A stretch of 64,000 bases of DNA, from the NCBI GenBank assembly GCA_964187785.1, contig OZ076416.1:28582001-28646000 (forward strand). The letters are read 5' to 3'. The stretch comes from Amphiscolops sp. MND2022 (Eukaryota). Each line of letters opens with the position of its first letter. The first letter of the stretch is position 1. The notes under the pieces are model-generated. The model ran no database searches, was not told the origin of the DNA, and was given only the letters and a program-made list of their open reading frames with translations. Position numbers and translations under genes: made by a program. Below are positions 4,300 through 54,377 of this stretch, piece after piece.

Positions 4300-6338
4300 T
4301 GTCGCGTTATGACTAACGCTTAATCAGTAATATAAATGCTACTGCAACAATAAAGCGCTTAACAAAAAACACCTGATTTAATAAAATGCTCAACAATCGT
4401 CCCAGGGCTACTCTTTCGTTTCTATACAAAAGCACCTGCATAAATACAAAGCGTAATAAACATCTTTGTGCTACAGTGCAGTTTATGATTGAAAACACCT
4501 GAGTTAATAAAATTCTCAACAATTGTCCCCTGGCTTCAGTGCAGTTTGTATTCAAAAAACACCTGCAAAAACAAAGCAGGAAATTGAACTAACCTGGAGA
4601 AAGGGAGATTAAATAATAGATTAAGTAGGACGGCTGGCAGAGAAAAGGGAGGCCGCAGAATAGTAAGTAAATAATCGAGGGATACAAATACCGCGGGATT
4701 GCACAAATGAAAAATTCTATTAATTACCGCGGAGATTCGAAATCTAAAGCTAAGCTCTGATTGGCTGAATGCAAAACTACCCACCCAGGCACTTCGGCAG
4801 AAGTGCTGAACTGTTTTTATACGGCGTGCACAGGCTGGAGCTTCATTCTCCCCGCCAACCGGCAAAGCTTCAACTTAAAGAAGCTCTCTCCCTTCCTCGC
4901 TTCTCCTTCTCTTCCCTTCACTTGCTCCAACTATACTTCTCTTCTCTTCACTAAATTCTTGAATTATTACCCCTTTGACTAAAAAATTCTATCCTACTTT
5001 CTTCCCCTCTTTTGCTTTGGCTCTCAATTTTGCTAAGTCACATCCCTCTTAGCTGAATTTTCTATCTTAGAAAATTCACTTCAATCCGACAACAGTCCCC
5101 GGTCTAGTGAGTGAAAAATAACTTAGTTTCTTTTTGTGGAGATTTCTGATTCTCCTTTTTCTAACTGAATTCTATCTTAGAATAATTCCGCTGATTTCAC
5201 TCAGCGGTTGTTTAAATTCTATCTTAGAATAATTCCACTGATTTTACTCACTGGTTGTTAAAATTCTATCTTAGTATAATGCCGCTGATTTCACTCAGCG
5301 GTTGTTTAAATTCTATCTTAGAATAATTCCACAGATTCTACTCAGTGGTTGTTTAAATTCTATCTGAGTATAATTCCGCTGATTTCACTTAACGGTTGTT
5401 TAAATTCTATTTTAGAATAATTCCACTGATTCTACTCAGTGGTTGTTTAAATTCTATCTCAGAAAAATTCCGCTGATTTTACTCAGCGGTTGTTTAAATT
5501 CTCTCTTAGAAAAATTCCACTGATTCTACTCAGTGGTAATTAAAAATCTATCTTAGTATAATTCCGCTGATTTTACTCAGCGGTTGTCTAAATCTCTATC
5601 TTAGAATAGCACTAAATAAATGGTTGGCGTTACACAAGTATTGACAAAATCATTTTACCTTATTTACCCTGTAAGTTTGTCTCTTATAAAAAGTCTCAAT
5701 ACTGTCTCTATACTCAACAGAGCAGTGACTTCAAAAAACTAAAACTCGCCAGTTTAAATTATCGCCGGCTAAAACCATCCCTTATACGGAGCTAATCTAA
5801 AGCCTTTTCAAGATGAATTTGTAAAAGCTTGCAATTTTATCTGTAAATTTTATGAATGTTTTCTGATGTATTTTATAAAGCTACTTCACTCGAAGATAAA
5901 GTAAATCCTTTAAATTTACTGCTGAAGTAAAATGAATAGTTCATTTGCTGCCGAATTTAACTAAAGATGGAATAGACACTGAGATGCCTAAAAAATTTCA
6001 CTTAGTACTATTGTCCGTTCACGTGAGATAATTCAACATATTTACTTATCATACTTTCTTTTTAGTCAGAGAGCTCTTTTACATACACTGCCTTGCACCT
6101 ACTCACGCAATTTCCTTTGTTCGCACGTACACGCAAGGCACTTCCTTTCTAGTATTACCCAGAGTAAGCTTTGAGACTTTCTTACTCACTTCTGATCAAT
6201 AATAAAATAGCCGCCTGAAAGTACTTTGCAAAATGCTAAGTTTGCTGAACTGTCTAATACTGATAACAATTGAACAGTCCCTTGAAAAGAGAAAAACAGA
6301 AAATAGTAAACAGCAAAAATCTATCCACGCATGCGACG
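4300..6338 (+). repeat. 5' LTR of element A (LTR1, 2039 bp)
   Basis: Homologous along its length to 22689-24592; ends ...ATGCGACG versus ...GTGCGACA in LTR3. Confidence 0.92.
5168..5607. repeat. Tandem array of 46-47-bp hairpin units in LTR1 (9 units, alternating A/B types)
   Basis: Unit AAATTCTATCTTAGAATAATT-CCGCTGA-tttcac-TCAGCGG-TTGTTT alternates with CCACTGA-ttttac/ttctac-TCAGTGG units. Confidence 0.92.
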
Positions 6339-6341
6339 TAC

Positions 6342-6358
6342 TGGTGCGACCAGTGAGG
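6342..6358 (+). promoter_or_regulatory. Putative primer-binding site of element A
   Basis: TGGTGCGACCAGTGAGG starts 3 nt after the LTR1 end; complement ends in CCA; primer tRNA not assigned. Confidence 0.7.
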
Positions 6359-7355
6359 CAGAACACTTCCTCTCTTTTAGTAGAGAAGTAAATGAGCTAT
6401 CTGTTAGAATCCCTACTCTCAGAAGTTAAGGTTAACAACCTATTTCTCTTAATCTTACTTCTGATTTTCTTTTTTCTACTGCCCCAATATGTGGCTTCTT
6501 TGGTCTATATAAATCATAGAACTGCTAGTAATTACTCCAATAGAATCTCTCCAGCTTAACAGCTTTTGGAAGAGACTGTGCACTACTCAACTGAGTCCTC
6601 TCAATCCCCAAAACGGTTAGATCTGATTTACTTTTACGGATATGCTAGACTACATTCGGTCCTAAACAAGAATGAAACTGCTTTCTAACACGGAATTTAA
6701 ACCTACAGTTGGGAAATTCACTCAAGTCCAGACGAACACACATTAAGAAAAAGCCCGCCTAGGTCTCCTCGGAGGCTGATTGAAGGCCGTGAGCCCAGTG
6801 GGTGTCCTGAAACCTGTGTAGCATTCCAAGGTGGAAACCTAGATTTCTAAGAATTCCAGTGATAGTACCCTAGTGTTAGCATGATAGTGATCTTGGCCCC
6901 GCGCTACTTAATCCTGAGGACGAGAGTGACTCCCTCTGTTTGTTTGTTGTATTACTTTTACCAACGCCACTGAAAGGCTAGACTAGCAGATTGAAGACCT
7001 TTTGGACCTACTGTACTCTCCATATTTTTTTGGGTTGATTTGGAGGATTGGTATACACCGAACTGCCTTTTCTGTTAATCACTAAGATTTAGCGGGATTT
7101 GAAGTATTAAACCCGGAGGACTAACGTCTCCTAAGCCGAGAGGTGAGATCTTCAAAATTTTTTTACAGCATACTACTGAGTATATGCAAAGTCAGACCTG
7201 CCTATTTCTTATCATTTTTAGAACTCTCGCAAGAGCGTCTTTTACCTTAGTCCTTTGTGATTATTCACAGAGACCTGGAGTATCCTACCTAATCGAATCT
7301 TTAATTTAATATTTGTTGCTACAATTTCTTTCTCTAATAATTTCAATAGCTCACA

Positions 7356-8731
7356 ATGGCTGCGCAAAATTACTTGGCTTATCCAGACCTCGGCAGAGAC
7401 CAATTCACAGGAACAGACCCAGATCAAGATCCTGAACAATTTATACAACTAAATGAAAAGAAGTTCCGATTTTCTCATGGCGATACCCCAGCAAACGGAG
7501 CAGCACTTGACAACTACAACTTCAGAAGAAAATCCTACTTTGCTGCTCTACCAAGAGGACCCGCAGCGGAGTGGTTCGAGACCAGCATCACAGACGCTAA
7601 CACTTGGGCAGAAATCAGAGAAAGGTTCATCACACGATTCGCAGATGGCAGAAACAAATTCAGACACAGAATAGAAGCAGAACATGTCACCAGACGAAAT
7701 GGAGAAGAGATAAAGTTTTTCATACACAGAATCAAAATTGTTGTGGGAAAAGGCTGGCCAGATGATCTTGCTGGCGTTGCACAAAACGACAAATGCAGAA
7801 AGAGCAGCACAAGACAGACAAAGAAGACAAAGGTGCATCGACTACTCACTGAGAGGCCTAAGACCTCCAAAACTGAGAGAAAAGGCACACGAATATCTAA
7901 TGGATCACCCGAATGCAACCTGGGAGCAATTCTCCCAAGCTGTAATAAACTAAGACCTTTCCTGCACTGTAACTACCGCCCTAACTGGCGGAGAATCACA
8001 TGCAGACCCACTCATACAAGAAATGCGGGACGACCTGAAGGGAATTAAACTACAAATCAAAGAACAGATGAATAACACGATCAACGCAGTAGAGAATACC
8101 GAAGACCCTAATGCTACAGGACGAAGAATGGCCACACGATTCTGTGGCTACTGCCGAACGAATGGGCACACCTAACTGGTGCAGAAAGAAGATGAGAGAC
8201 GAAGTCAAGAAGGTTCAAAACGAAGCTAACACAAAGAGAAGAATAACATTCACCAACTATTACAACAAAAGAACCGGACCTGGACATGGCTCAAGATTTC
8301 AGCCAAGGTTACCCGTTTCAGAGATCTGAAAACATATGGCTGTGGCACACCAACTGGCGCTCGCTGGAGCTTTGCAAGCAACCCCCACTTGGAACCGATT
8401 TGATAAACCACAGAACAGAAACTTTAACTCAGAACGCAGAACTACGAGTACAAGGTTTGACTCTAATAACTCTAGATTCTCACAAGAGGGGAGAAGACCT
8501 TTTTCCAACAATCCCAACAATTCTAGAAGTGTCTCTCCAGGACTACAAAGGGCAAGATTTCCATTTGTCCCCAATAGAGGCCAGTCTAGTTCGTTCAACC
8601 GCAACATACTACCTCTTCCACCAAGGAATAACTCAGTTTTTCAGAGACAACAACAAAACAGAAACGAAAGACCCAACAACCCTACTCAGTCTTACGAGCA
8701 AAGATTCTCAAAGACCAATGACATGGGATGA
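7356..8731 (+). pseudogene. gag: Frameshifted gag with CCHC zinc knuckle
   Basis: ORF 7356-8048 (DPEQFI...LPRGPAAEWFE...WAEIRERFITRF, retrotransposon capsid-like); knuckle C-G-Y-C-R-T-N-G-H-T-P-N-W-C split by a frameshift near 8170; N/R/Q-rich tail in ORF 8336-8731. Confidence 0.85.
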
Positions 8732-9014
8732 TCCAAACAGAAAGGCAGTTTCTACAGGACTCAACTTCATAAATGTCCTATGTACACGGTTCGAGAAGAC
8801 ATTGCCAATTGTCATGGAAAACAACAAGAACCATACAATCATACTAGTAAAAGGAACAATTGGATACTCTATGCTAGACGTCATTGACAAAGAAATCCCA
8901 AAATATCAGATTACAAATCCTACCGAACTCGCTTACACCATTTTAAGCGAAAATGAAGAATACAATGATTGCTTCTTACTACACTCCACTATCCCTTCAC
9001 AAGATATGAACGAT

Positions 9015-9442
9015 TGCATCAGAATAGAGGGAGGAAATTCTACAACAATACTCAGCAGACCAAACTCTATTTTCATCTTTGCCCGGCTGATCTAAAGCCA
9101 GCAAAAAGCTTCTCTAAAGAAATTCTAACGAACATATCTTCATTAAAAGACTCTTGCGCAAAACAGAAACCACAAAAAGGCGACACAATACCCTACTGGG
9201 TTATGACTCTAAAGCGATTTATATACGTCCTAATCACTAAAGCTAAATCGAAAGACAAAATTGACCCACAAATTTTAGTCCAATCGCTGGAGACACTAGA
9301 AGCACACGCCAAAATGAATAGTATCAAGACAGTTTCTATGTTACGAGAAGCCTCGGAACTAGAAGACTTCCAATGGCAAGATGTTACACAAATTATTCAA
9401 GACGTTTTTGCCTACTCAGAAATACAACTCCGAATTTATACA
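9015..9442 (+). pseudogene. TARG1/OARD1 (Poa1p)-like macrodomain inside pol, upstream of RT
   Basis: RFIYVLITKAKSKDKIDPQILVQSLETLEAHAKMNSIKTVSMLREASELEDFQWQDVTQIIQDVFAYSEIQLRIYT aligns by eye, without gaps, to recalled TARG1 RYIYYLITK...[56 protein letters not shown]; N-terminal strand in the adjacent frame. Confidence 0.8.
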
Positions 9443-9535
9443 AGAAACGAACTAGATATCTATGCCATGACTACTAGATGAGACCCCGAATATGCACTAG
9501 TTGATGAAATACAACAAGTCTTTGAAGAATTTCAC

Positions 9536-12500
9536 TTGAAGCACAGAGAACTGGAAACTGACTTTACGAAAGACATAAAGTCCTGTCAACCACCTTGTGA
9601 CGAACAATTCAAGATATTTTGGCCCAAGGAAGACAACGAACGACTAATCGAATACTATCCTCAATATCAGAACAAAGAAGCAGTTCAATACATCAAAGAA
9701 TTCGACTTTCGCTACTCGGACCTCACAGACGAAGAACTTGTTCTTCTAATAGACCTACTAATGGATGCTAGCGATGTATACTCACAACACAAGTTCGACG
9801 TTGGGAAAACTAGACAGAAATTCATTATTAAACTGGAACAGGGAGCAATTCTGAAGAGACAGACCTAGCAAAGTACCACTACACCTACGAGAGAAGCTAC
9901 AAAAACTACTAACTAAGAGGCTGACATCATAGAGATGGGCGATGACGACGAAATGGGATCCGTATTCGTGAATCCCATCATCCTACAACCAAAACATGAT
10001 TGTCAAGTGACAGATCTAACAAACTACTCCTGGCCCTTGGAACCAATAAAAACCATAATGACGCTCATCAACGGGAAAATCTCAGTAAGTGATCTCTTCT
10101 GCGCTTTTCACCAAGTCCCACTAGACGAGCCCACACAGAAACTCACTAGCTTCATGATTGGCGGCAAACAATATACATTCACCAGAGGATTCTACGGACT
10201 TAAAGGATTACCCACTTTCTTCATCTGTATGATGACAAATCATTTCGAACCCCTCATCAAGAAAAAACAAGCAACTACCTACATAGACGACACGTTAATG
10301 CAGGCCAAAAACTAACAAGAAATGTTCAAAGTGATCCAAGAATACCATGACCTACTACGGAAAACAGGACTCAAGGCAGCGCCCGACAAAACACTATTCT
10401 TCTTGAGAAAAGTTAAGTTCCTGTGACATGTGATTGCAGCAGAAGGAATACAACCCGTTGCTAAACGAGTCAGGGATCTTCACAATCTCAAATCGCCAAA
10501 AACGAAAACTGAGGTAAAAAGCTTCCTAGGGGCTCTGGGATTTTATAGCTGTTACATCAAGAATCTACATGTCGATAGCCGACAATTCTACGAGCTGACC
10601 AAGAAAGATACAAACTTTTGTTGGAAACAAGAACATGAAGTCCTCTTCCAAGAAATAAAGAAGAGAAGAAGCGAAGACACAGTCCTTGCCGTACCCTCAA
10701 CAAAGTACCCTTCACATACACGTCGATTCATCCTACGTAGGAGCCGGATGTATCCTAATACAACAATCCCCCGAAGGAAAACGGATTATTTCCTTCAATT
10801 CACGAGTTTTTGCAAGAGAAGAAAAGAAGATGTCCACTCTACATAGAGAACTATGCGGCATAGTCTCAGCTCTTCAAACGTATGAGCACTACATCATCGG
10901 ATCGCCTTTCCCTATTTACTTATACTGTGACCATAAACCGATTCTATATCTCTGGGGACGAAAGGGACAAGTTTCCCCACGCTTCTTTAGATACCAAGTG
11001 ATTATTTCCAAGTTCCCCAATCTAAAGGTAATATGGACGCCGGGAAGCAACTTAGCCTTCCCTGATATATTCAGCCGAAATGTCTCAATCGAAGAACACA
11101 AGAAACATCAATTTAGCCACAAGATCCTACCCAACGACATACACTTCTTCGATGAGCATGGGACTCAAGTTCACTACAAAATCAAACACGAGGAAAACGA
11201 CGAGACATCAAAGAATGACTTCTACCCTATATTGTACGAGAAAGGGAAAGAATACACAAAATACTTACAGCTCTGTCAACAGCGATGCAGACGATGATGC
11301 TCCCACAAATGATGAACGTCAAGAAGTGAACGAAACAAATTACGAGCCGAATACGAGTTCCCGGGCACCCAAACAATGTTTCTCCAAAAACGATAAGGCA
11401 ACAGAAAATCACGAGCTCCCTAAAACCACCATGGGAAAACAAAAAACATCAGCACGAGAACTCATAGGCCAACTTGATAAGATATCCAGAGAAACGGAGC
11501 TAAATGTCAACACAATCTTACAAGAACAAATTAACGATCCAGTCCTTAGTGTGGTTCGACAGTGGATAAGTCAGGAAACAAGCCTACGCCGAAATCACCA
11601 GAGTTACAACACTCGAAAGGCCTCATGCGCTACTTTCAGCAGTTCGACAGACTAACTATAGAAGAACAAGGAAACCTCCTCTGTTACAACGAGCCAACTG
11701 ACGACCCTGCAGACGCAAATCTGAGAATCTGCCTACCTCTCTATTTCTAGCTTGCTTCCGTATGGGACATTACATTGACCTGGGCGGCCGCATGGGAGCT
11801 GAGAAAACCTACCTAAAAGCTGAAAGATTCTACTACTGGTCCGGAATGCACGACTGGATCTGTGTCCTCACACAAGATTGTGTTAGCTGCCAATCTAACA
11901 AATCCAAACAACGAAGAAATAACGAAGTCCCACTGGAAGACTGTGAAACTGAGACCCAAGTATTCAGAAAGGTTCATATCGATCACAAGGGACCACTCAA
12001 CCCTCCCAGTCGTGGAAATTCACATTGCCTCCTCATCATTGACGCCTTCTCACTCTACTTGATGGCATACCCGGTTAGAGACACAGGAGCACAATCAACA
12101 ATCAACGCAATGGAAAAATGGATTATGCACTATGGAATACCGCAATCTATCTTACATGATAGAGGAACAGCCTTTGTAAACACTGAATTCATCAATTGGA
12201 CGAAAGAGTTTGGCATTACTCTTCGACCAAGAACTGCACACTCACCCTGGACAAATGGCAAAGTCGAAACCCAAAATCAACACATTGCAAGATACTGGAG
12301 AAACTTCTTAAACGAATCAGGAAACAACTTTTGCATTCGCCCACAACACAAGCGTCAACTACACAACAGGAAAGACATCATACGAAATAGTGTTCTGCAA
12401 CAAACCACAAATACCTAAGAGTCTTAAGCTGGGACTCTGTAGGAATAAAAACAAGAACTGCAGATCAGTTCTGTAACGGATTACCTCCCCATCGCCATAG

Positions 12501-13364
12501 CGAAAACCAAGTCAAAAACGAACTACTAAATGGACTACTAAGACCACAACTATCTCAAAGCTTGCTGGAACGAGAAACAGCCTTCGAAAAGGTCTACTCA
12601 TCCACATACGTAAAGTGCAGACACTAAACAGCTCGATCACACGCCTACAGAAACAGATTTAAACTCGGAAATCATCTCAACATAGGACAAAAGTTCCTGC
12701 TAGAAAACCATCGAAAGGATCTCTCTAAAAGCCGAAAACTTCAACAACTGCGATTAGGACCCTTTACAGTTACCAAGAGAGTTACCAACACAACCTACCA
12801 AATAACACAAGTTCGAAATCTCGAGAACCTCCGAACTGTCCATAGAAATCACCTAATAGAATACTTTCCCAAAGAGGAAACACTCCCCCCTCTTATCGAA
12901 GAATACACAACTCCAAACCGGGGAGACACGGATTTTTATAACAATCTTGTCAAGGGCAGAATTGAACAGCTTAATGTTTCAGACCCACAAATACTCGGAG
13001 ATCTCTGTATACTGCCAGTACGGAACCAACAAGATCAATTACCTGCCCGCAAAAGAGCACAAACCCCACAGAGCACAGACTCTGGTATCATCTCTCCAGC
13101 AAATCAGTTGTTGACAACCCAAAGACTCCTGATCAGCCTTCGACCTCACATCCTCGAGACACCGCAACCCCTATCCTGACAATGACACAACGTCAACCGA
13201 CACCAGCACCCCCAACTAACACCGCGGCATCTTCAACCAAAATTACCAACTCCCTTGCAAGAATTAAGAAGAGCTGTTGCCCTCCACATAGAAAGAAATC
13301 CACGCTATCAACGCGCACAGCCCAATCAACCAGCACAACAATCCATCCTTCGCGAAAGGACTAG
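9536..13364 (+). pseudogene. pol: Disrupted pol: RT, RNase H, integrase (copy 1)
   Basis: RT SDLFCAFHQVPL...FTRGFYGL...YIDD (9935-10315); RNase H HVDSS...HRELCGIV...YCDHKP (10686-); integrase H/C zinc finger, HIDHKGP, HDRG, NGKVETQN (11762-12418); many stops and frameshifts. Confidence 0.93.
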
Positions 13365-13687
13365 AATTGGTTACAAAGAATAACCTTATCGTGCCATGCC
13401 ATAAAGTCTATCTAAATTTGCCTTGGCAAGTTCCGCGAGAACTTCAATCCTTCTGCGTTCCCGAGCCTAGACAAACGACTCAAGCCCCAAAAATCGAATC
13501 TACATCCTGAATCAAGGACTTTCGCCCTCTTATATCAACACCTCGCATACTATGCAGTCACACACCACGACCCTATCCTGGAGGAACTCCTATCCTACAT
13601 GCATACCCTAATACCTGACCTACAACCTTCCCTACCTAATACTCAAAAGGACCTATTCTGCTGCTCTACTATCTCCTCACCTATCTC

Positions 13688-14176
13688 CTAGCCTGCTCCA
13701 TTTTCCTGACATAAAACTAATATAAATATTATAATTATTTTTTGATACACTTCGTGCAACCCCGTAGTATAACTCACGCAAATGCGGACGAAGACAGAAG
13801 GAAATACAAAAATAAGGGCTAGAGTGGAGTAGCCTAACAGGCCTATTCCACTTCTAAGAAACCCCATCTCCGCCAGTTTTTGTAACTGTTGAACTCGCTC
13901 AGCGTTGATCCAGTCGGGCCACAAACGACGAAACTGCCCCCTCTTGTAGGTCGTCAGCTGGGAGTTGCCACGGATGTGACTCCTGAGCCTAAATAGCAAG
14001 ACTTCTCCCTGCTCGGCTAGGAGTCGAGCCTCCCACTGCCGCCCGAACAACTGCATCAGGAACAAAAGCGACGGAAGAAGCCACAACAGCTGCAGCCGGC
14101 GAAGAGTAGCAGAAGAAGGGGCTGTAACGGCCGATGCCCCACTATGGGCAAGGTTATTAACATTGTTGCTGCTCAT
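13688..14176 (-). pseudogene. Antisense accessory ORF, copy 1 (internally deleted, retains hydrophobic C-terminus)
   Basis: ATG of MSSNN at 14176; ~302-bp deletion relative to copy 2; C-terminus IGLLGYSTLALIFVFPSVFVRICV. Confidence 0.5.
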
Positions 14177-14406
14177 TACTGAACCCAAAGTAGCTATAGT
14201 TAAAATTTTGTCATGTAAACCTAAATAAATATCTACTGATTTGACATTAATCCTATACATACATAACAACCTATCCTATTATCCACAGATACAATTTATT
14301 ATATCTCGATAGCTATCTAATTTACGGCGATCTCATATGAGATCGTAATCGTACTTTTCATTTTACAATGGTTCTCAAACGCAATGAAATAACTGATGAT
14401 TACATT

Positions 14407-17400
14407 ACAAAGTACCCCTTTCACTTACACGTCGATTCATCTAACGTAGGAACCGGATGTATCCTAATACAACAATTCCCCGAAGGAAAACGGATTATTT
14501 CCTTCAATTCACGAGTTTTTGCAAAAGAAGATGTCCACTCTACATAGAGAACTATGCGGCATAGTCTCAGCTCTTCAAACGTATGAGCACTACATCATCG
14601 GATCGCCTTTCCCTATTTGCTTATACTGTGATGATAAACCGATTCTATATTTCTGGGGACGAAAGGGACAAGTTTCCCCACGCTTCTTCAGGTACCAAGT
14701 GAGTATTTCCAAGCTCCCCAATCTAAAGATAATATGGACGCCGGGAAGCAACTTAGCCTTCCCTGATATACTCAGCCGAAATGTCTCAATCGAAGAACAC
14801 AAGAAACATCAACTTAGCCACAAGATCCTACCCAACGACATACACTTCTTCGATGAGCATGGGACTCAAGTTCACTACAAAATCAAACACGAGGAAAACG
14901 ACGAGACATCAAAGAATGACTTCTACCCTATATTGTACGAGAAAGGGGAAGAATACACAAAATACTTACAGCTCTGTCAACAGCGATGCAGACGATGATG
15001 TTCCCACAAATGATGAACGTCAAGAAGTGAACGAAACAAATTACGAGCCGAATACGAGTTCCCGGGCACCCAAACAATGTTTCTCCAAAAACGATAAGGC
15101 AACAGAAAATCACGAGCTCCCTAAAACCACCATGGGAAAACAAAAAACATCAGCACGAGAACTCATAGGCCAACTTGATAAGATATCCAGAGAAGCGGAG
15201 CTAAATGTCAACACAATCTTACAAGAACAAATTAACGATCCAGTCCTTAGTGTGGTTCGACAGTGGATAAGTCAGGAAACAAGCCTACGCCGAAGTCACC
15301 AGAGTTACAACACTCGAAAGGCCTCATGCGCTACTTTCAGCAGTTCGACAGACTAACTATAGAAGAACAAGGAAACCTCCTCTGTTACAACGAGCCAACT
15401 GACGACCCTGCAGACGCAAATCTGAGAATCTGCCTACCTCTCTATTTCTAGCTTGCTTCCGTATGGGACATTACATTGACCTGGGCGGCCACATGGGAGC
15501 TGAGAAAACCTACCTAAATGCTAAAAGATTCTACTACTGGTCCGGAATGCACGACTGGATCTGTGCCCTCACACAAGATTGTGTTAGCTGCTAATCTAAC
15601 AAATCCAAACAACGAAGAAATAACGAAGTCCCACTGGAAGACTGTGAAACTGAGACCCAAGTATTCAGAAAGGTTCATATCGATCACAAGGGACCACTCA
15701 ACCCTCCCAGTCGTGGAAATTCACATTGCCTCCTCATCATTGACGCCTTCTCACTCTACTTGATGGCATACCCGGTTAGAGACACAGGAGCACAATCAAC
15801 AATCAACGCAATGGAAAAATGGATTATGCACTATGGAATACCGCAATCTATCATACATGATAGAGGAACAGCCTTTGTAAACACTGAATTCGTCAATTGG
15901 ACGAAAGAATTTGACATTACTCTTCGACCAAGAACTGCACATTCACCCTGGACAAATGGCAAAGTCGAAACCCAAAATCAACACATTTCAAGATACTGGA
16001 GAAACTTCTTAAACGAATCAGGAAACAACTGGGCCCAACTAGCTGCTAAATTTGCATTTGCCCACAACACAAGCGTCAACTACACAACAGGGAAGACATC
16101 ATACGAAATAGTGTTCTGCAACAAACCACAAATACCTATGAGGAGTCTTAAGCTGTGACTCTGTAGGAATAAAAACAAGAACTGCAGATCACAGTTTTGT
16201 AACAGATTACCTCTCCATCGCCATAGCGAAAACCAAGTCGAAAACGAACTACTAAATGGACTTTTAAGACCACAACTATCTCAAAGCTTGCTGGAACGAG
16301 GAACAGCCTTCGAAAAGGTCTACTCATCCACATACGAAAAGTGCAGACACTAAACAGCTCGATCACACGCCTACAGAAACAGATTTAAACTCGGAAATCA
16401 CCTCAATATAGGACAAAAGTTCCTGCTAGAAAACCATCGAAAGGATCTCTCTAAAAGCCAAAAACTTCAACAACTGCGATTAGGACCCTTTACAGTTACC
16501 AAGAGAATTACCATTACAACCTACCAAATAACACAAGATCGAAATCCCGAGAACCTCCGAACTGTCCATAGAAATCACCTAATAGAATACTTCCCCAAAG
16601 AGGAAACACTCCCCCCTCTTATCGAAGAAAACACAACTCCAAACCGGGGAGACACGGATTTTTATAACAATCTTGTCAAGGGCAGAATTGAACAGCTTAA
16701 TGTTTCAGACCCACAAATACTCGGAGATCTCTGTATACTGCCAGTACGGAACCAATAAGATCAAATACCTGCCCGCAAAAGAGCACAAACCCCACAGAGC
16801 ACAGACTATGGTATCATCTCTCCAGCAAATCAGTTGTTGACAACCTCAAAGACTCCCGATCAGCCTTCGACCTCACATCCTCGAGACACCGCAACCCCTA
16901 TCCTGACGTTGACACAACGTCAACCGACTCCAGCACACCCAACTAACACCCCGGCATCTTCAACCAAAATCACCAACCCCCTTGCAAGAATTAAGAAGAG
17001 CTGTTGCCCTCCACAGAGAAAGAAATCCACGCTATCAACGCGCACAGCCCAATCAACCAGCACAACAATCCATCCTTCGCGAAAGGACTAGAATTGGTTA
17101 CAAAGAATAACCTTATCATGCCATGCCATAAAGTCTATCTAAATTTGCCTTGGCAAGTTCCGCGAGAACTTCAATCCTTCTGCGTTCTTCAAGTAACAAT
17201 TACAAAAATCTACTGGACCTACAAAAAACAAGATAGTTAGAATTCGCTTCAACTTCAACGACCCTGACCCGAGCCTAGACAAACGACTCAAGCCCCAAAA
17301 ATCGAATCTACATCCTGAATCAAGGACTTTCGCCCTCTTATATCAACACCTCGCATACTATGCAGTCACACACCACGACCCTATCTTAGAGGAACTCCTA

Positions 17401-18527
17401 TCCTACATGCATACCCTAATACCTGACCTACAACCTTCCCTACCTAATACTCAAAAGGACCTATTCTGCTGCTCTACTATCTCCTCACCTATCTCCTAGC
17501 CTGCTCCATTTTCCTGACATAAAACTAATATAAATATTATAATTATTTTTTGATACACTTCGTGCAACCCCGTAGTATAACTCACGCAAATGCGGACGAA
17601 GACAGAAGGAAATACAAAAATAAGGGCTAGAGTGGAGTAGCCTAACAGGCCTACTCCACTTCTAAGAAACCCCCATCTCCGCCAGTTTTTGTAACTGTTG
17701 AACTCGCTCAGCGTTGATCCAGTCGGGCAACAAACGACGAAACTGCCCCCGCTGGTAGGTCGTCAGCTGGGAGTATCCAGGGATGTAACTCCTGAGCCTA
17801 AATAGCAAGACTTCTCCCTGCTCGGCTAGGAGTCGAGCCTCCCACTGCCGCCCGAACAACTGCATCAGGAAAGATGCGAACCCGTCTGGGATAGGAACAG
17901 CCACCGCCATAATTCTTCGGTACCTACCCTCTAATCCATCGAGTTCTCTCGACCCACTCCTCCAATCGACGGACGTCCCCCAATTATATAAATCCATGAA
18001 GGTCTCATGGTCCGGGTTGCTTATCTCTCCAGGGATTAGCAAACCGTGGGGCCGACGCAAGGGAGGAACCGCAACCACGGGAGCCCCAACTGGACGAGAC
18101 GTGTCCAGGCGACTAGGCCCGGCCACAGACCCCGATGAAGGATCCGCCGCTACAACAACAGAGGACACAGCCACAGAAGCGACGGAAGAAGCCACAACAG
18201 CTGCAGCCGGCGAAGAGGCCGAGACAGTAGCAGAGAAAGGGGCTGTAACGCCCGATGCCCCACTATGGGCAAGATTATTAACATTGTTGCTGCTCATTAC
18301 TGAACCCAAAGTAGCTATAGTTAAAATTTTGTCATGTAAACCTAAACAAATATCTACTGATTTGACATTAATCCTATACTTACATAACAACTTATCCTAT
18401 TATCCACAGATACTATTTATTATATCTCGATAGCTCTCTAATTTACGGCGATCTTATATGAGATCGTAATCGTACTTTTCATTATACAATGGTTCTCAAA
18501 CCCAATGAAATAACTGATGATTACATT
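14407..18527 (+). repeat. Tandem duplicate of the RNaseH-integrase-3' region (10700-14406)
   Basis: Junction GATTACATT|ACAAAGTACC at 14406/14407; ORFs 14781 and 15263 repeat 11080 and 11562 at offset 3701; inactivating lesions are shared. Confidence 0.93.
17662..18297 (-). CDS. Antisense accessory ORF of unknown function, copy 2 (211 aa from MSSNN)
   Basis: Continuous ORF in a GC-richer island; Ser/Ala/Val-rich N-terminus then a globular-looking half (FMDLYNWG...RQWEARLLAEQGEVLLFRLR). Confidence 0.55.
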   Translation of the reverse strand: MSSNNVNNLAHSGASGVTAPFSATVSASSPAAAVVASSVASVAVSSVVVAADPSSGSVAGPSRLDTSRPVGAPVVAVPPLRRPHGLLIPGEISNPDHETFMDLYNWGTSVDWRSGSRELDGLEGRYRRIMAVAVPIPDGFASFLMQLFGRQWEARLLAEQGEVLLFRLRSYIPGYSQLTTYQRGQFRRLLPDWINAERVQQLQKLAEMGVS

Positions 18528-18580
18528 CTCTGATTTGCTATGTTTGATGAACACAAACAACGAGGCAAAACAACCCACAG

Positions 18581-19390
18581 ATGATCATAATATTCAAAAT
18601 CTACAACCGACTTTCACATATCACTGACATTCAGAAGGAACCCTCAACACAGAACATCATCCTACAAGCCTACGCAATAGCAGAAGAAAGTGAAACCTAC
18701 ACGTGCGTGCCAGCATCACCTATCTACCCACTGGAGAGCTTGCCATATAATAACACACTACAGAAGTCTTCACAAGAGCCAAATCAGTCATCTAATGTCC
18801 TCTCCCGCAGCTGCCGTCTTCCGCGGGAATAAGTACTACTTCCACACACAATTTCAACCTCCGGTTCCTTTGACCCCCATACCACTCAATGGTCAATACG
18901 AAATGGTCATCACTAACTCTGCGGTTCAAGTTCGTATACTCACACCAGAAGTATACAACTTCAAATGTAGCTTCACGAGCCCTATCTATACTACTCACCT
19001 AGCAGGCTGCAAAATATCCTTTAGACTATTTCCATGTGGGAAAAACCTCTTCCGTGGAATCCACTCCTCCATTTGCTGTGAACTCCATCTTAGCGACTTC
19101 ACGCTCCCTCGAACATGGCCTTTCGACCGACAAGTAGAAGTCTCCATCATAGAACAAAAACAATAAGTGGTCTACCTACTTCCCACACCACTGACAAGAA
19201 CAACCAAGACGTCACCCACGCCAGCACCTACACTCTCCCGGACCTCATGCGAGAAGATTTCATCCCTCACACAAAACTATTGGTCAACTTCAGGGAAGCC
19301 TTTTTAAACGACTCTGTAATCCTCCAAATTAAATTTAACGAACACCCCTCTAAAATCCCAAGTGCTAAAGAGACCTCCCCTCATTTCTGA
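18581..19390 (+). pseudogene. Accessory ORF with TRAF-type MATH domain (core 18888-19336), copy 1, frameshifted
   Basis: NGQYEMVITN...SPIYTTHLAGCKISFRLFPCG...GIHSSICCEL...WPFDRQVEVSIIEQ...FIPHTKL...FLNDSVILQIKF matches the TRAF-C strand pattern (W-K-I, SPxFYT..GYKxCLRLYxNG, GTHLSL, WPF.Q.V.L.LLDQ, F..H..L, YL.DD.L.I). Confidence 0.75.
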
Positions 19391-19425
19391 CCTACCCCAA
19401 ATACATCGTTCTCTTTTTCCCTGCC

Positions 19426-19432
19426 AGGGGGG
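19426..19432 (+). promoter_or_regulatory. Polypurine tract before LTR2
   Basis: AGGGGGG followed by TAAGC then TGTCGC. Confidence 0.75.
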
Positions 19433-19437
19433 TAAGC

Positions 19438-20512
19438 TGTCGCGTTATGACTAACGCTTAATCAATAATATAAATGCAACTGCAACAATAAAGCGCTTAA
19501 CAAAAAACACCTGATTTAATAAAAAGCTCAACAATCATCCCAGGGCTACTCTTCCGTTTCTCTACAAAAAGCACCTGTTTAAATAAAAAGTGTAATAAAC
19601 ATCTTTGTGCTACAGTGCAGTTTATGATTGAAAAACACCTGAATTAAAAAAATTCTCAACAATTGTCCCCTGTCTTCAGTGCAGTTTGTATTCAAAAAAG
19701 ACCTGAAAAACAAAGCAGGAAATTGAACTAACCTGGAGAAAGGGAGATTAAATAATTGATTAAGTAGGACGGCTGGCAGAGAAAAGGGAGGACGCTGAAT
19801 AATAAGTAAATAATCGAGGGATACAAATACCGCTGGATTGCAAAAATGAAAAATTCTATTATTTACCGCGTAGATTCGAAATCTAAAGCTAAGCTCTGAA
19901 TGGCTGAATGCAAAATTAGCCAACAGGGCACTTCGGCAGAAGTGCTGAACTGTTTTTATACGGCGTGCACAGGCTGGAGCTTCATTCTCCCCGCCAACCG
20001 TCAAAGCTTCAACCTAAAGAAGCTCTCGCCCTTCCTCGCTTCTCCTCTTCCCTTCACTCCAACTCTACTTCTCTTCACTAAATTCTTGAATCATTTCACC
20101 TTTGACTAAAAAATTCTATCTTTCTTCCCCTCTTTTGCCTTGGCTCTCAAATTTGCTAATCACATCCCTCTTAGCTGAATTTTCTATCTTAGAAAATTCA
20201 CTTCAATCCGACAACAGTTCCGGGTCTGGTGAGTGAAAAATTACTTAGTTTCTTTTTGGGGAGATTTCTGATTCTCCCTTTCTAACTAAATTCTATCTTA
20301 GAATAATTTCGCTGATTTCACTCAGCGGTTGTTTAAAATCTATCTTAGAATAATTCCACTGATTTTACTCAGTGGTTGTTAAATTTCTATCTTAGTATAA
20401 TTCCGCTGTGTTCACTCAGCGGTTGTTTAAATTCTATCTTAGAATAATTCCACAGATTCTACTCAGTGGTTGTTAAAATTCTATCTTAGTATATTTCCGC
20501 TGATTTCACTCA
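19438..20512 (+). repeat. Truncated internal LTR (LTR2)
   Basis: Near-identical to the 5' part of LTR3; breaks inside the fifth hairpin unit (array 20289-20512) and joins internal sequence homologous to 17255 onward. Confidence 0.92.
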
Positions 20513-20913
20513 ACGACCCTGACCCGAGCCTAGACAAACGACTCAAGCCCCAAAAATCGAATCTACATCCTGAATCAAGGACTTTCGCCCTCTTATATCA
20601 ACACCTCGCATACTATGCAGTCACACACCACGACCCTATCTTAGAGGAACTCCTATCCTACATGCATACCCTAATACCTGACCTACAACCTTCCCTACCT
20701 AATACTCAAAAGGACCTATTCTGCTGCTCTACTATCTCCTCACCTAGCTCCTAGCCTGCTCCATTTTACTGACATGAAACTAATATAAATATAATTATTT
20801 TTTGATACACTTCGTGCAACCCCGTAGTATAACTCACGCAAATGCGGACGAAGACAGAAGGAAATACAAAAATAAGGGCTAGAGTGGAGTAGCCTAACAG
20901 GCCTACTCCACTT

Positions 20914-21548
20914 CTAAGAAACCCCCATCTCCGCCAGTTTTTGTAACTGTTGAACTCGCTCAGCGTTGATCCAGTCGGGCAACAAACGACGAAACTGCCC
21001 CCGCTGGTAGGTCGTCAGCTGGGAGTATCCAGGGATGTAACTCCTGAGCCTAAATAGCAAGACTTCTCCCTGCTCGGCTAGGAGTCGAGCCTCCCACTGC
21101 CGCCCGAACAACTGCATCAGGAAAGATGCGAACCCGTCTGGGATAGGAACAGCCACCGCCATAATTCTTCGGTACCTACCCTCTAATCCATCGAGTTCTC
21201 TCGACCCACTCCTCCAATCGACGGACGTCCCCCAATTATATAAATCCATGAAGGTCTCATGGTCCGGGTTGCTTATCTCTCCAGGGATTAGCAAACCGTG
21301 GGCCGACGCAAGGGAGGAACCGCAACCACGGGAGCCCCAACTGGACGAGACGTGTCCAGGCGACTAGGCCCGGCCACAGACCCCGATGAAGGATCCGCCG
21401 CTACGGCAACAGACGACACAGCCACAGAAGCGACGGAAGAAGCCACAACAGCTGCAGCCGGCGAAGAGGCCGAGACAGTAGCAGAGAAAGGGGCTGTAAC
21501 GCCCGATGCCCCACTATGGGCAAGATTATTAACATTGTTGCTGCTCAT
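20914..21548 (-). pseudogene. Antisense accessory ORF, copy 3 (split by 1-bp loss near 21300)
   Basis: ORF fragments 21288-21641 and 20914-21294 together reproduce copy 2. Confidence 0.55.
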
Positions 21549-21831
21549 TACTGAACCCAAAGTAGCTATAGTTAAAATTTTGTCATGTAAACCTAAATAA
21601 ATATCTACTGATTTGACATTAATCCTATACTTACATAACAACTTATCCTATTATCCACAGATACTATTTATTATATCTCGATAGCTCTCTAATTTACGGC
21701 GATCTTATATGAGATCGTAATCGTACTTTTCATTATACAATGGTTCTCAAACCCAATGAAATAACTGATGATTATATTCTCTGATTTGCTATGTTTGATG
21801 AACACAAACCACGAGGCAAAACAACCCACAG

Positions 21832-22641
21832 ATGATCATAATATTCAAAATCTACAACCGACTTTCACATATCACTGACATTCAGAAGGAACCCTCAACA
21901 CAGAACATCATCCTACAAGCCTACGCAATAGCAGAAGAAAGTGAAACCTACACGTGCGTGCCAGCATCACCTATCTACCCACTGGAGAGCTTGCCATATA
22001 ATAACACACTACAGAAGTCTTCACAAGAGCCAAATCAGTCATCTAATGTCCTCTCCCGCAGCTGCCGTCTTCCGCGGGAATAAGTACTACTTCCACACAC
22101 AATTTCAACCTCCGGTTCCTTTGACCCCCATACCACTCAATGGTCAATACGAAATGGTCATCACTACCTCTGCGGTTCAAGTTCGTATACTCACGCCAGA
22201 AGTATACAACTTCAAATGTAGCTTCACGAGCCCTATCTATACTACTCACCTAGCAGGCTGCAAAATATCCTTTAGACTATTTCCATGTGGGAAAAACCTC
22301 TTCCGTGGAATCCACTCCTCCATTTGCTGTGAACTCCATCTTAGCGACTTCACGCTCCCTCGAACATGGCCTTTCGACCGACAAGTAGAAGTCTCCATCA
22401 TAGAACAAAAACAATAAGTGGTCTACCTACTTCCCACACCACTGACAAGAACAACCAAGACGTCACACACGCCAGCACCTACACTCTCCCTGACCTCATG
22501 CGAGAAGATTTCATCCCTCACACAAAACTATTGGTCAACTTCAGGGAAGCCTTTTTAAACGACTCTGTAATCCTCCAAATTAAATTTAACGAACACCCCT
22601 CTAAAATCCCAAGTGCTAAAGAGACCTCCCCTCATTTCTGA
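21832..22641 (+). pseudogene. TRAF-type MATH accessory ORF, copy 2 (core 22139-22587)
   Basis: Near-identical to 18581-19390 with the same frame breaks. Confidence 0.75.
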
Positions 22642-22676
22642 CCTACCCCAAATACATCGTTCTCTTTTTCCCTGCC

Positions 22677-22683
22677 AGGGGGG
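22677..22683 (+). promoter_or_regulatory. Polypurine tract before the 3' LTR
   Basis: AGGGGGG-TAAGC-TGTCGC. Confidence 0.75.
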
Positions 22684-22688
22684 TAAGC

Positions 22689-24592
22689 TGTCGCGTTATG
22701 ACTAACGCTTAATCAATAATATAAATGCAACTGCAACAATAAAGCGCTTAACAAAAAACACCTGATTTAATAAAAAGCTCAACAATCATCCCAGGGCTAC
22801 TCTTCCGTTTCTCTACAAAAAGCACCTGTTTAAATAAAAAGTGCAATAAACATCTTTGTGCTACAGTGCAGTTTATGATTGAAAAACACCTGAATTAAAA
22901 AAATTCTCAACAATTGTCCCCTGTCTTCAGTGCAGTTTGTATTCAAAAAAGACCTGCAAAAACAAAGCAGGAAATTGAACTAACCTGGAGAAAGGGAGAT
23001 TAAATAATTGATTAAGTAGGACGGCTGGCAGAGAAAAGGGAGGACGCTGAATAATAAGTAAATAATCGAGGGATACAAATACCGCGGGATTGCAAAAATG
23101 AAAAATTCTATTATTTACCGCGTAGATTCGAAATCTAAAGCTAAGCTCTGAATGGCTGAATGCAAAATTAGCCAACAGGGCACTTCGGCAGAAGTGCTGA
23201 ACTGTTTTTATACGGCGTGCACAGGCTGGAGCTTCATTCTCCCCGCCAACCGTCAAAGCTTCAACTTAAAGAAGCTCTCGCCCTTCCTCGCTTCTCCTCT
23301 TCCCTTCACTCCAACTCTACTTCTCTTCACTAAATTCTTGAATCATTTCACCTTTGACTAAAAAATTCTATCTTTCTTCCCCTCTTTTGCCTTGGCTCTC
23401 AAATTTGCTAATCACATCCCTCTTAGCTGAACTTTCTATCTTAGAATATTCACTTCAATCCGACAACAGTTCCGGGTCTGGTGAGTGAAAAATTACTTAG
23501 TTTCTTTTTGGGGAGATTTCTGATTCTCCCTTTTCTAACTAAATTCTATCTTAGAATAATTTCGCTGATTTCACTCAGCGGTTGTTCAAAATCTATCTTA
23601 GAATAATTCCACTGATTTTACTCAGTGGTTGTTAAATTTCTATCTTAGTATAATTCCGCTGATTTCACTCAGTGGTTGTTTAAATTCTATCTTAAAATAA
23701 TTCCACTGATTCTACTTAGTGGTTGTTAAAATTCTATCTTAGTATAATTCCGCTGATTTCACTCAGCGGTTGTTTAACTTCTATCTTAGAATAATTCCGC
23801 TGATTTTACTCAGCGGTTGTCTAAATCTCTATCTTAGAATAGAACTAAATAAATGGTTGGCGTTACACAAGTATTGACAAAATCATTTCACCTTATTTAC
23901 CCTGTAAGTTTGTCTCTTATAAAAAGTCTCAATACTGTCTCTATACCCTACAGAACAGTGACTTTAAAAAACTAAAACTCGCCAGTTTAAAATATCACTG
24001 GCTAAAACCATCCCTTATACGGAGCTAATTTAAAGCATTTTCGAGATGAAAATGTAAAAGCTTGCAATTTTATCTGTAAATTTTATAAATGTTTTCTGAT
24101 GTAATTTATGAAGCTACTTTGCTCGAAGATAAAATAAATCCTTTAAATTTACTGCTGAAGTAAAATGAATAGTTAATTTGCTGCCGAATTTAACTTAAAA
24201 TGGAATAGACACTGAGATGCCTAAAAAAATCCCCTTAGTACTATTGTCCGTTCACGTGATATAATTCAACATATTTCCTTATCATACTTTCTTTTTAGTC
24301 AGAGAGCTCTTTTACATACACTGCCTTGCACCTACTCACGCAATTTCCTTTGTTCGCACGTACACGCAAGGCACTTCCTTCCTAGTAGCGTAAGAAAGCT
24401 AGTATTAATTACACAGAGTGAGCTTTGAGACTTTCTTACTCACTTCTGATCAATAAAAAAATAGTCGCCTGAAAGTACTTTGCAAAATGCTAAGTAAGCT
24501 GAACTGACTAATACTGATAACAATTGAACAGTCCCTTGAAAAGAGAAAAACAGAAAATCGTAAACAGCAAAAATCTATCCATGCGTGCGACA
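22689..24592 (+). repeat. 3' LTR of element A (LTR3, 1904 bp; 6-unit hairpin array at 23542-23840)
   Basis: TGTCGC...GCGACA ends; the 135-bp deficit versus LTR1 is about three fewer array units. Confidence 0.93.
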
Positions 24593-54168: not shown

Positions 54169-54365
54169 TGTTGACGATAACGAACTTAGGTGAAAGAAGA
54201 GAATTTCGTAACAACTGTGAATTAGTACAGAATCTGATGTTATGGCAGTTGCTGTTAATTTGCCACTTTGGCTAAGTTTGGCAGGTTGTTATTATTACGT
54301 AATTTAATCATTTTCACACATTTGTTTTCTCAGCAATTAAGTTCAGTATTCTAGACTCTACTACA
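54169..54365 (-). repeat. 3' LTR of element B
   Basis: Differs from 59374-59570 at 4 of 197 positions by manual comparison. Confidence 0.95.
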
Positions 54366-54377
54366 CTTCCCTCTTTT
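54366..54377 (-). promoter_or_regulatory. Polypurine tract of element B
   Basis: AAAAGAGGGAAG on the minus strand, directly abutting the 3' LTR. Confidence 0.88.

Follow-up and report, generated by a model that had tools for sequence, protein, structure and literature searches.

Introduction

The locus considered here, which lies in a window of 64,000 nucleotides from the acoel Amphiscolops sp. MND2022, raises the question of whether a gypsy retrotransposon has taken domains from its host and, if so, what these domains do for it. In a preliminary description, made from the letters of the window, it was proposed that two host domains, a macrodomain and a TRAF-type MATH domain, had been captured for immune evasion. 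Comparison with relatives in the same genome partly supports this reading, as far as sequence can speak: capture and upkeep are backed by open frames, low dN/dS and a likely donor, whereas a counter-immunity pair in the family of the window copy is opposed by the Glu at the G123-equivalent site of its macrodomain and by a diverged TRAF-C. The account preferred here, and judged slightly better than even, is that of a dead, deleted copy of an env-bearing Ty3/gypsy element, in whose relatives a TARG1-type macrodomain, small genes and a probably host-derived TRAF would serve as accessory genes steering the host cell.

The element in the window

The LTR element bounded by a target-site duplication (TSD), as first described, was confirmed by its TG..CA LTRs, the 4-bp TSD, the primer-binding site (PBS) and the polypurine tract (PPT), all of which were present in eight relatives as well (Table 1). 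The gag, reverse transcriptase (RT), RNase H (RH) and integrase (INT) named before were all detected; the Pol order in the relatives is protease (PR)-RT-RH-INT, and the window copy is without PR. No tRNA that would prime at the PBS came out of a pattern search. With the tandem array left out, the two LTRs of the window copy are 94.7–94.8% identical.

Two duplications, with offsets of 3,707 bp and 3,255 bp, lie within the element. The length of about 13.3 kb given earlier is correct as the arithmetic of collapsing them, but it is not the size of the element, since full-length relatives measure 17.5–19 kb. In comparison with these, the window copy lacks ~650 bp at ~8735 (gag end and protease), ~180 bp at ~11253 and ~4.2 kb at 18951/18956, the last gap taking most of s2, all of s3, env, ORF X and residues 1–191 of the 341 of the TRAF protein. 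With gag and pol broken and three deletions, the copy is a deleted, dead member of a retrovirus-like family, as its earlier naming as dead had it.

Two open reading frames were rejected as genes. The 161-aa “MATH ORF” at 18681–19166 is a chimera in which the deletion has joined s2 to the TRAF remnant, so that of the TRAF-type MATH ORF claimed just before the PPT the domain stands (Pfam E 6e-5, under the cut-off) and the ORF does not. The 214-aa sense ORF at 17789–18433 is merely the reverse strand of the antisense gene. The antisense ORF itself is a real gene, its other five frames holding 32–41 stops across eight copies. A “further unknown ORF” had been announced with no location; the 214-aa frame is not a gene, and the genes of unknown nature are in fact s1, s2, s3 and X.

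Table 1. Features of the element, in positions of the window.
Feature	Position	Strand	Remark
5' target-site duplication CCCC	4296..4299	.	Full-length relatives likewise with 4-bp TSD
5' LTR, TG..CA, with 47-bp tandem array at 5168-5608	4300..6338	+	
Primer-binding site	6342..6358	+	Same letters in 8 A/A2/B family copies compared
gag, broken: 3 pieces, 3 stops	7341..8728	+	3' end deleted along with protease
pol copy 1, broken; protease (residues 1-200) absent	8697..13380	+	
TARG1/OARD1-type macrodomain, protease-RT interval; Glu at G123- and D125-equivalent sites	9040..9478	+	
Reverse transcriptase (YIDD) and RNase H	9870..11050	+	Bounds approximate
Integrase: H2C2, core, SH3-like C-terminus	11730..12900	+	Bounds approximate
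Antisense ORF, copy 1, with internal deletion	13688..14275	-	
Older internal duplication, RNase H through pol end	14407..17187	+	97.6% identity to 10700-13460
Antisense ORF: Ser/Ala/Pro-rich N-half, conserved ~115-aa C-domain; final residues out of frame	17662..18396	-	
Small ORF s1, ~73 aa in relatives, frameshifted	18551..18832	+	
5' fragment of small ORF s2	18795..18951	+	Paralogous ~120-aa family
~4.2-kb deletion junction	18951..18956	.	Rest of s2, s3, env, ORF X, TRAF N-half gone
TRAF ORF remnant, residues 192-341, frameshifted	18951..19387	+	
Polypurine tract, copy 1	19426..19436	+	
Partial LTR, product of younger duplication	19438..20515	+	99.4% identity to 3' LTR
Younger duplication	20510..23768	+	99.2% identity to 17255-20515
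Antisense ORF, second copy within younger duplication, split	20914-21647	-	
s1, second copy within younger duplication	21802-22083	+	
s2 fragment, second copy within younger duplication	22046-22202	+	
TRAF remnant, second copy within younger duplication	22202-22638	+	
Polypurine tract	22677..22687	+	
3' LTR, TG..CA	22689..24592	+	
3' target-site duplication CCCC	24593..24596	.	

Full-length relatives and their genes

The window element belongs to family A, which was compared with the related families B and C, as well as A2, within the same genome. The three related gypsy families share a common layout: gag, pol with its macrodomain in the PR-RT interval, small ORFs, env, ORF X and a gene for a coiled coil with TRAF-C. 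Full-length relatives keep the protease and a gB-type (class III) env, both lost from the window copy, and at least five accessory genes, with a pol-to-env distance of ~3–5 kb. All three env proteins tested matched PF24664 above the cut-off (E 5e-31 to 5e-39); the protein holds 15 Cys and, close to residue 618, a single hydrophobic stretch. The env is the main feature that the preliminary description overlooked. Gag, pol and env are intact in multiple near-identical copies of the family, several full-length copies have LTR pairs that are 99–100% identical, and the pol frame reaches at least 1,800 aa in 24 of 53 close copies, among the best 150 of 996 candidates scored. By its sequence, the element is classed as an env-bearing Ty3/gypsy LTR retrotransposon, with an RT tree that covered the families of its own genome. 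It represents an invertebrate gypsy clade of recent expansion that combines env with five or more accessory genes under selection and seems to exceed the sizes covered by the published survey of env elements.

Several short signals suggest how these genes may be expressed. The motif TTTAAAC was present in all three copies read, and Gag-Pol would be made by a -1 frameshift at UUUAAAC. Six of six copies read have, directly after the env stop, a stretch of pyrimidines closed by AG that resembles a splice acceptor, and ORF X may be exon 2 of a spliced RNA. Stop-start overlaps (s1/s2 TAATG in 7/8 copies; X/TRAF ATGA in 6/6 family-A copies) would couple the translation of s1-s2-s3 and of X-TRAF, and one gene would be expressed off the antisense strand. 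For the small-ORF family, a predicted model (pLDDT 78) has four strands and three helices; its best PDB match has a Z of 5.0 and no viral structure matched at E ≤0.001, which is not proof of a new fold. A search of the ESM Atlas with s2 and ORF X gave no usable match.

Selection on the accessory genes

In family A, median pairwise dN/dS was 0.07 for gag, 0.06 for pol and 0.055 for env and, among accessory genes, 0.11 for s1, 0.07 for s2, 0.11 for s3, 0.11 for X, 0.23 for TRAF and 0.26 for the antisense gene, over pairs that share copies, hence non-independent, and at high dS (0.4–1.9). The sample comprised copies with a frame covering >70%, that is, 7–11 of 11 per ORF. By domain, the macrodomain had 0.07 and MATH 0.14, far lower than ~1; the macrodomain and TRAF frames are open in many copies, and both folds, Macro (as TARG1) and MATH (as TRAF5 in Foldseek), were recovered. 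Family-A ORFs are therefore under purifying selection, which speaks for usefulness to the element and says nothing of an effect on the host. The accessory genes likely help the element to steer host cells. That they are passive cargo, functionless host fragments carried along, is scarcely credible: the window copy has decayed and the N-half of the antisense gene is weakly constrained (dN/dS 0.44), as such cargo would be, but every ORF in two families has a dN/dS well under 1, and the layout is kept in three families despite saturated synonymous sites.

The macrodomain

The TARG1-like macrodomain claimed in pol holds up: it matches human TARG1 with an E of 4e-10, although with no Pfam Macro match, and the family-B domain does so with an E of 3e-24. 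All five PDB matches up to E 10 were TARG1, which was top in further comparisons too. It is thus not of the Mac1 class of the coronavirus and alphavirus domains that the preliminary description had invoked, no MacroD or viral macrodomain (Mac1/nsP3) being among its nearest relatives.

Natural states of the macrodomain across the three families are intact, altered and likely dead. In family B, the GCGLD loop with G123 and D125, plus K84, is present in 6/6; K84 and D125 act in catalysis in TARG1. In family C, EDG replaces GCG. Family A has Glu at both 123 and 125 and no AHC motif; of 20 loci, 18 carry Glu in the place of G123, and two went unread. Because G123E in human TARG1 abolishes ADP-ribose binding and catalysis, with RNA binding retained (PMC5928194), ADP-ribose binding has probably been lost in family A.

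This makes it unlikely that family A carries a dedicated counter-immunity pair, in which the macrodomain would erase PARP marks and the TRAF would jam TNFR/TLR/RLR signalling. The TARG1 rather than Mac1 class, the location of macrodomain and TRAF in separate ORFs, and the occurrence of TARG1-type macrodomains in further LTR polyproteins, where they are placed differently, argue in the same direction, while the full TARG1-type site of family B and a genome with 32 PARP and 8 TIR matches favour such a pair. Improbable too is replication housekeeping with no defence role, in which the macrodomain would tidy ADP-ribosylated DNA/RNA ends or bind RNA during reverse transcription or integration and a TRAF trimer would scaffold translation or packaging of the element RNA. 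The macrodomain lies inside Pol and so would enter the particle along with RT and integrase, and the RNA binding kept by TARG1-G123E agrees with this; however, RT, RNase H and integrase are slow (64–93% identity between families; RT 77–88%), whereas the macrodomain (28–42%) and TRAF-C (20–30%) are the fastest parts, a divergence that favours the account of host-steering accessory genes as well as the counter-immunity pair.

The TRAF gene and its likely donor

In full-length relatives, the TRAF gene encodes a coiled coil followed by TRAF-C/MATH, with Pfam scores above the cut-off; its predicted model (pLDDT 71) matches TRAF5 in Foldseek (E 7e-12). RING and zinc fingers are absent from the element TRAF ORFs, and the acoel host homolog (P0023) appears to be without RING too. 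Host TRAF genes with GT-AG introns were located at C3:90.87 Mb and C3:25.70 Mb. Against nine other animal TRAFs, the element and acoel-type host TRAFs form a clade (support 100/99; second tree 98/98), which makes capture from the host likely, apparently from a RING-less acoel TRAF subfamily with introns. The gypsy copies run continuously across the host's last intron position, which fits a capture by way of RNA. The idea that loss of a RING had turned the element copy into a dominant negative was dropped, since the donor itself appears to be RING-less. Among the best 150 of 440 TRAF-C matches, which are saturated by element copies, there were no canonical RING-TRAFs, and a zf-TRAF profile search of the genome gave a single match, for which the 30 kb examined held no TRAF-C. 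A single TRAF clade for the gypsy families, as one capture rather than several would leave it, was not rejected with nine unassigned rows removed (p-AU 0.20); with these included it was rejected at p 1e-5, likely because they nest among the elements.

The same TRAF type is borne by an otherwise unrelated, Maverick-like palindromic element, which favours both the host-steering account and the counter-immunity pair and, as a DNA element of different life cycle, weighs against housekeeping. For the pair also speaks the conserved TRAF-C of family B (dN/dS 0.03); against it stands the remodelling in family A, where TRAF-C has 24% identity to the host and the FQRP..N.S segment, in the presumed receptor-peptide groove region and kept in B and C, is replaced. 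Moreover, acoels are reported to be without TLR, MyD88, IRAK and NF-kB (PMC12849515), which also argues against the pair. A genome search for the NF-kB RHD gave no match, but neither did its positive control, so that it carries no weight.

Family-A TRAF carries a PAM2-like motif (LxPxAxxFxP) in 12 of 18 loci, a pattern found once in 20,000 shuffled sequences; Pfam PF07145 matched 5 of 6 proteins at E 0.014–0.074, under its cut-off of 20 bits. A control of translation, as housekeeping supposes, fits this motif. The predicted complex of the peptide with host MLLE scored 0.37 versus 0.02 for the best control (pLDDT ≥53; at least 73% of contacts common between runs) and backs the PAM2 reading weakly, at a mark reached by 51/78 solved and 2/108 mismatched pairs, where a pass may reflect memory of solved PAM2 complexes.

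Proposed mechanism and significance

Under the preferred account of accessory genes that steer the host cell, like those of complex retroviruses, the ancestral state, best preserved in family B, would have combined a working ADP-ribose eraser with a RING-less trimeric TRAF adaptor. The eraser would be set free from Pol into the particle or the integration complex, and the element TRAF would compete with host TRAF for its partners. In family A, both have likely been rewired: the macrodomain may persist as a structural or RNA-binding module, and the PAM2-like peptide would tether TRAF to poly(A)-binding protein, which points to a role in mRNA translation or stress granule control, not in receptor-to-NF-kB signalling.

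A further proposal, possible but still doubtful, is that a defence or cell-death pathway not yet described, and independent of NF-kB, centres on the RING-less acoel-specific TRAF. An enveloped gypsy clade and a Maverick-like DNA element would each have hijacked this TRAF on their own, one gypsy lineage having turned its TRAF into a poly(A)-binding-protein adaptor and retired its ADP-ribose eraser. As acoels reportedly have no Toll/NF-kB signalling, captures by two unrelated parasites point to the host pathway that counts against such parasites. If this were true, elements of complex-retrovirus grade would exist in a lineage near the bilaterian base. With a traceable donor and three macrodomain states, the function of macrodomain and TRAF in retroelements becomes testable with natural proteins.

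Comparison with known systems

The gB-type “ancient errantiviruses” described by Chary and Hayashi (PMC13524379) are, like the element, Ty3/gypsy with gag-pol-env, a class III (chuvirus/gB-like) env and near-identical invertebrate copies. That survey admitted elements of up to 10 kb in which pol and env lie close together; its text does not mention macro, TRAF, MATH, accessory or acoel, and its seven supplementary files name no acoel (PMC13524379). The elements described here differ in size, in the long pol-env interval and in their accessory genes. A further parallel is Burro/GYPSM1, a planarian giant gypsy that has an env and a MATH_TRAF_C domain and for which interference with apoptosis and ubiquitination in the host has been proposed (PMC6431247). 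Burro exceeds 30 kb and has its TRAF either within ORF1 (~4,900 aa) or upstream of it, an F-type env, BIR/BCL2 domains and a dUTPase between PR and RT (PMC6431247), whereas the element has a macrodomain in the PR-RT slot, a gB-type env, TRAF as a separate last ORF and an identifiable likely host donor.

LTR retroelements with a macro domain are also known among teleost epsilon-like ERVs (Basta 2009, cited in PMC4977317), which are true fish retroviruses; the citing passage does not mention TRAF. The same TARG1-type class, whose best solved relative is human TARG1/OARD1 for both families A and B, occurs in a sawfly LTR polyprotein (P0055), a second LTR polyprotein (P0057) with an apparent env-like region by eye, and the replicase of Ips virga-like virus 1; the GCGLD loop is intact in two such sequences read. 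In the outside LTR polyproteins, the macrodomain follows RNase H or integrase/chromo instead of lying between PR and RT, and these differing positions suggest separate captures.

The preliminary description knew of no such combination in an LTR element, while allowing for an earlier account. MATH/TRAF in a gypsy element was already known from Burro (PMC6431247); macrodomain, TRAF and env together were not found in the literature within reach, RepBase, Dfam, GyDB, most subscription journals and bioRxiv supplements being beyond it. The separate ingredients have precedent in Burro, fish ERVs and gB errantiviruses, and the combination is unmatched in the literature found. Complex retroviruses, such as foamy viruses, have accessory genes downstream of env, ahead of the 3' LTR, and HBZ of HTLV is an antisense gene. 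With these the element shares a likeness of organisation only: accessory genes in that same interval, a likely spliced RNA and an antisense gene.

The window copy and its full-length relatives

The element at 4300-24592 of the window is a Ty3/gypsy LTR retrotransposon assigned to family A. As the preliminary description stated, it possesses LTRs, a TSD, gag, RT, RNase H, integrase and a TARG1-like macrodomain, and the copy is dead. The TSD is CCCC (4 bp), and gag and pol are in many pieces interrupted by stops. Both PBS and PPT are present, and Pfam detected the four retroviral domains together with a MATH domain below cut-off. The LTR pair is 94.7-94.8% identical (K2P about 0.055), while two internal duplications seen in a self-comparison of the window (offsets 3,707 and 3,255 bp) show 97.6% and 99.2% identity, which makes them younger than the insertion. 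In comparison with full-length relatives, the copy lacks about 650 bp including the protease, about 180 bp within pol, and about 4.2 kb comprising env, ORF X, s3 and the N-half of TRAF. The MATH ORF of the preliminary description is a fusion made by the 4.2-kb deletion, and its junction was spanned by no other close match among the 150 scored.

Coordinates of the element, its surroundings and related loci (window positions unless a contig, C, or fetched locus, L, is named)
Feature	Position	Basis or remark
LTRs	4300-6338 and 22689-24592	self-comparison of the window
Partial LTR	19438-20515	self-comparison of the window
47/94-bp tandem array within LTR	5168-5608, 20287-20512, 23540-23841	copy number differs among LTRs and among elements
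Macro ORF	8969-9481	human TARG1 match, E 4e-10
RS-tailed cyclophilin (PPIG-like) host gene	29161-32744	by eye
MORN + ankyrin repeat host gene	34281-38695	by eye
Second, unrelated LTR retrotransposon	54169-59570, minus strand	197-bp LTRs 98% identical; gag-pol split over two long ORFs; no env
ORF X of a relative	L052:5312-5911	equivalents in other copies
Host TRAF genes	C3:90.87 Mb and C3:25.70 Mb	intron-containing
BEL/Pao-like LTR element just upstream of host TRAF exons	C3:90863000-90883000	369-bp LTRs 100% identical
TRAF palindromes, four copies	C1:78432095, C1:103773317, C8:57332657, C7:73114567	L108-L113, L122-L123, L132-L135

By using the macro ORF as query against the 1.07-Gb animal assembly, at least 53 further close copies (82-91% identity) were found among the 150 of 996 candidates scored, 24 of them with a pol frame of 1,800 aa or more; 19 loci were taken for reading at first and more were added later. 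Full-length relatives measure 17.5-19.0 kb (eight elements), and several inserted recently, since their LTR pairs are 99-100% identical. In these relatives gag (436-493 aa) comes first and pol (about 1,830-1,880 aa; PR-macro-RT-RH-INT) second; after them follow an antisense ORF, small ORFs, env (about 710-716 aa), ORF X, and a coiled-coil + MATH ORF lying directly 5' of the PPT. The env matched PF24664 (Monjiviricetes_fusion) in all three proteins tested, with E values of 5e-31 to 5e-39. This layout is common to three families (A with its sister A2, B, and C), whose RT identity is 77-88%. The anatomy is very probably that of a gypsy clade that is complex and enveloped and has accessory genes derived from the host; joined to the mechanism proposed for it, this reading is somewhat favoured.

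Selection and expression

Open frames under purifying selection, which the preliminary description named as support for its claim, were found in the relatives. For family A, median pairwise Nei-Gojobori dN/dS values, from pairs that are non-independent and partly saturated in dS (7-11 of 11 copies per ORF set, frames covering >70% of the ORF, pairs with dS <0.08 and the A2 copy excluded), were 0.07 for gag, 0.06 for pol, 0.055 for env, 0.11 for s1, 0.07 for s2, 0.11 for s3 and for X, 0.23 for TRAF and 0.26 for the antisense ORF. By domain, the values were 0.07 (A) and 0.11 (B) for macro, 0.14 (A) and 0.03 (B) for MATH, 0.11 for the antisense C-domain and 0.02 for RT. Most of the original observation holds, with a payload that is under selection and bigger than first stated.

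Putative expression signals were read from the sequence. TTTAAAC stands upstream of the gag stop in all three families. Just after the env stop, 6/6 copies have a run of pyrimidines that ends in AG, and family-A ORF X has no ATG, so X is likely a second exon. The s1/s2 overlap is TAATG in seven of eight copies, s3 starts a few bases inside s2, and X overlaps TRAF by ATGA in 6/6 family-A copies; stop-start overlaps of this kind are known to mark termination-reinitiation.

In eight copies, selected for an open antisense frame, that frame contains no stop, the other five hold 32-41 stops each, and changes fall mostly at third positions. Its C-domain weakly matches an antisense ORF of family C (E 0.002-0.01). 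When aligned, the small ORFs of families B and C join s2 and s3 in a single paralogous family (about 120 aa), with profile support for the links among B and C ORFs and alignment plus weak matches for those to s2/s3. In ORF X, an N-half that is acidic and rich in Ser/Pro is combined with a basic stretch and a C-domain of ~70 aa that is conserved (45-51% identity between families); going by layout, ORF X is a candidate transactivator.

The macrodomain

Judged from sequence, the macrodomain is TARG1-class in all three families, in line with the fold first proposed. Family B retains AHCISAD, LVTK and MPKIGCGLD (6/6 copies), and family C has EDGLD in the two of five copies read. In family A the motif is MLREASELE, placing Glu at the sites aligned with TARG1 G123 and D125; the former Glu occurs in 18 of 20 loci (the other two unread) and in the two of three A2 copies read. 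Human TARG1 carrying G123E loses both ADP-ribose binding and catalysis and still binds RNA (PMC5928194), for which reason the family-A domain is likely a pseudo-enzyme retained for a different role. Macros of TARG1 type were also seen in 3/6 matches, namely a sawfly RT-RH polyprotein, a polyprotein with integrase and chromo, and the replicase of an insect virus, so this domain has been captured recurrently.

The TRAF gene and its sources

A natural family-A protein was modelled as coiled coil + TRAF-C (pLDDT 71), with a Foldseek match to TRAF5 (E 7e-12); the TRAF-type MATH fold agrees with the preliminary assignment. Two intron-containing host genes are likely the source type; that at C3:90.87 Mb shares 43-48% identity with family B, in coiled-coil and MATH exons alike. 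A homolog, 72% identical, belongs to the TRAF6-A-like cluster of the acoel Convolutriloba macropyga, which suggests an acoel host; in the domain reading of that protein, coiled coil, MATH and, by eye, one zinc-finger remnant were seen, and no RING. The suggested host capture is supported by phylogeny, with element and acoel-type host TRAFs forming one clade against nine other animal TRAFs (support 100/99; 98/98 without nine unassigned rows). The topology test does not reject a single capture by the ancestor of the gypsy families (p-AU 0.20). Families share 20-30% identity in TRAF-C, and A, B and C each stand nearer to the host (24, 43 and 38%, respectively) than to one another. The host's last intron position is read through in gypsy copies.

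In family A, the FQRP..N.S segment is replaced, and the TRAF start carries a PAM2-like LNPxAxPFIP in 12 of 18 loci (1/20,000 shuffles); Pfam PAM2 E values were 0.014-0.074 in five of six proteins, all below cut-off. A predicted complex of this peptide with host PABP MLLE scored 0.37 against 0.02 for the best control, giving weak support to the pairing, which may reflect memory of solved complexes. Nine more TRAF derivatives that fall in the same clade, each a single ORF (proteins P0066, P0072, P0077, P0078, P0082, P0093, P0099, P0101 and P0124), among which P0099 joins the host coiled-coil motif with a PAM2-like start, suggest further carrier families.

Palindromic repeats of 14-18 kb have at their centre a copy of the same TRAF type, 53-58% identical to the host exon (about 28 matches), and gag, pol and env are absent from them. 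AGTAGT ends and 6-bp TSDs, features of Maverick/Polinton elements, were seen in two of four copies, the two whose ends were read, and the palindromes are likely non-autonomous elements of that type. Because they retain the host's last intron, their sequence points to a separate, DNA-level capture. The arms carry ORFs of ~130 and ~200 aa with no confident Pfam match.

Host context and comparison with known systems

The genome contains 32 PARP and 8 TIR matches. Roughly a dozen PARP-domain matches each fall within one frame of 900-2,100 aa; several cluster on contigs C4, C7 and C13, and they may represent an expanded PARP family of the defence type. Acoels are reported to be without TLR, MyD88, IRAK and NF-kB, and that source makes no mention of TRAF, TNF or RIG-I (PMC12849515). 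For an acoel host, a target between TLR and NF-kB would be unlikely; possible targets are JNK, cell-death or undescribed acoel pathways. The counter-immunity system initially envisaged would make macrodomain and TRAF a dedicated pair in family A; both are under selection there, the macrodomain is the predicted pseudo-enzyme, and this reading is the less likely one, to be considered doubtful.

No report of macro, TRAF and env combined was found in the literature searched, a search separate from repeat databases. A gB-type env in Ty3/gypsy is already known, and a term search of that source's text and seven supplements returned no acoels, macro or TRAF (PMC13524379). PMC4695847 yielded nothing further for this comparison. 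Planarian Burro combines MATH_TRAF_C with env (PMC6431247), and fish ERVs carry macro domains (PMC4977317).
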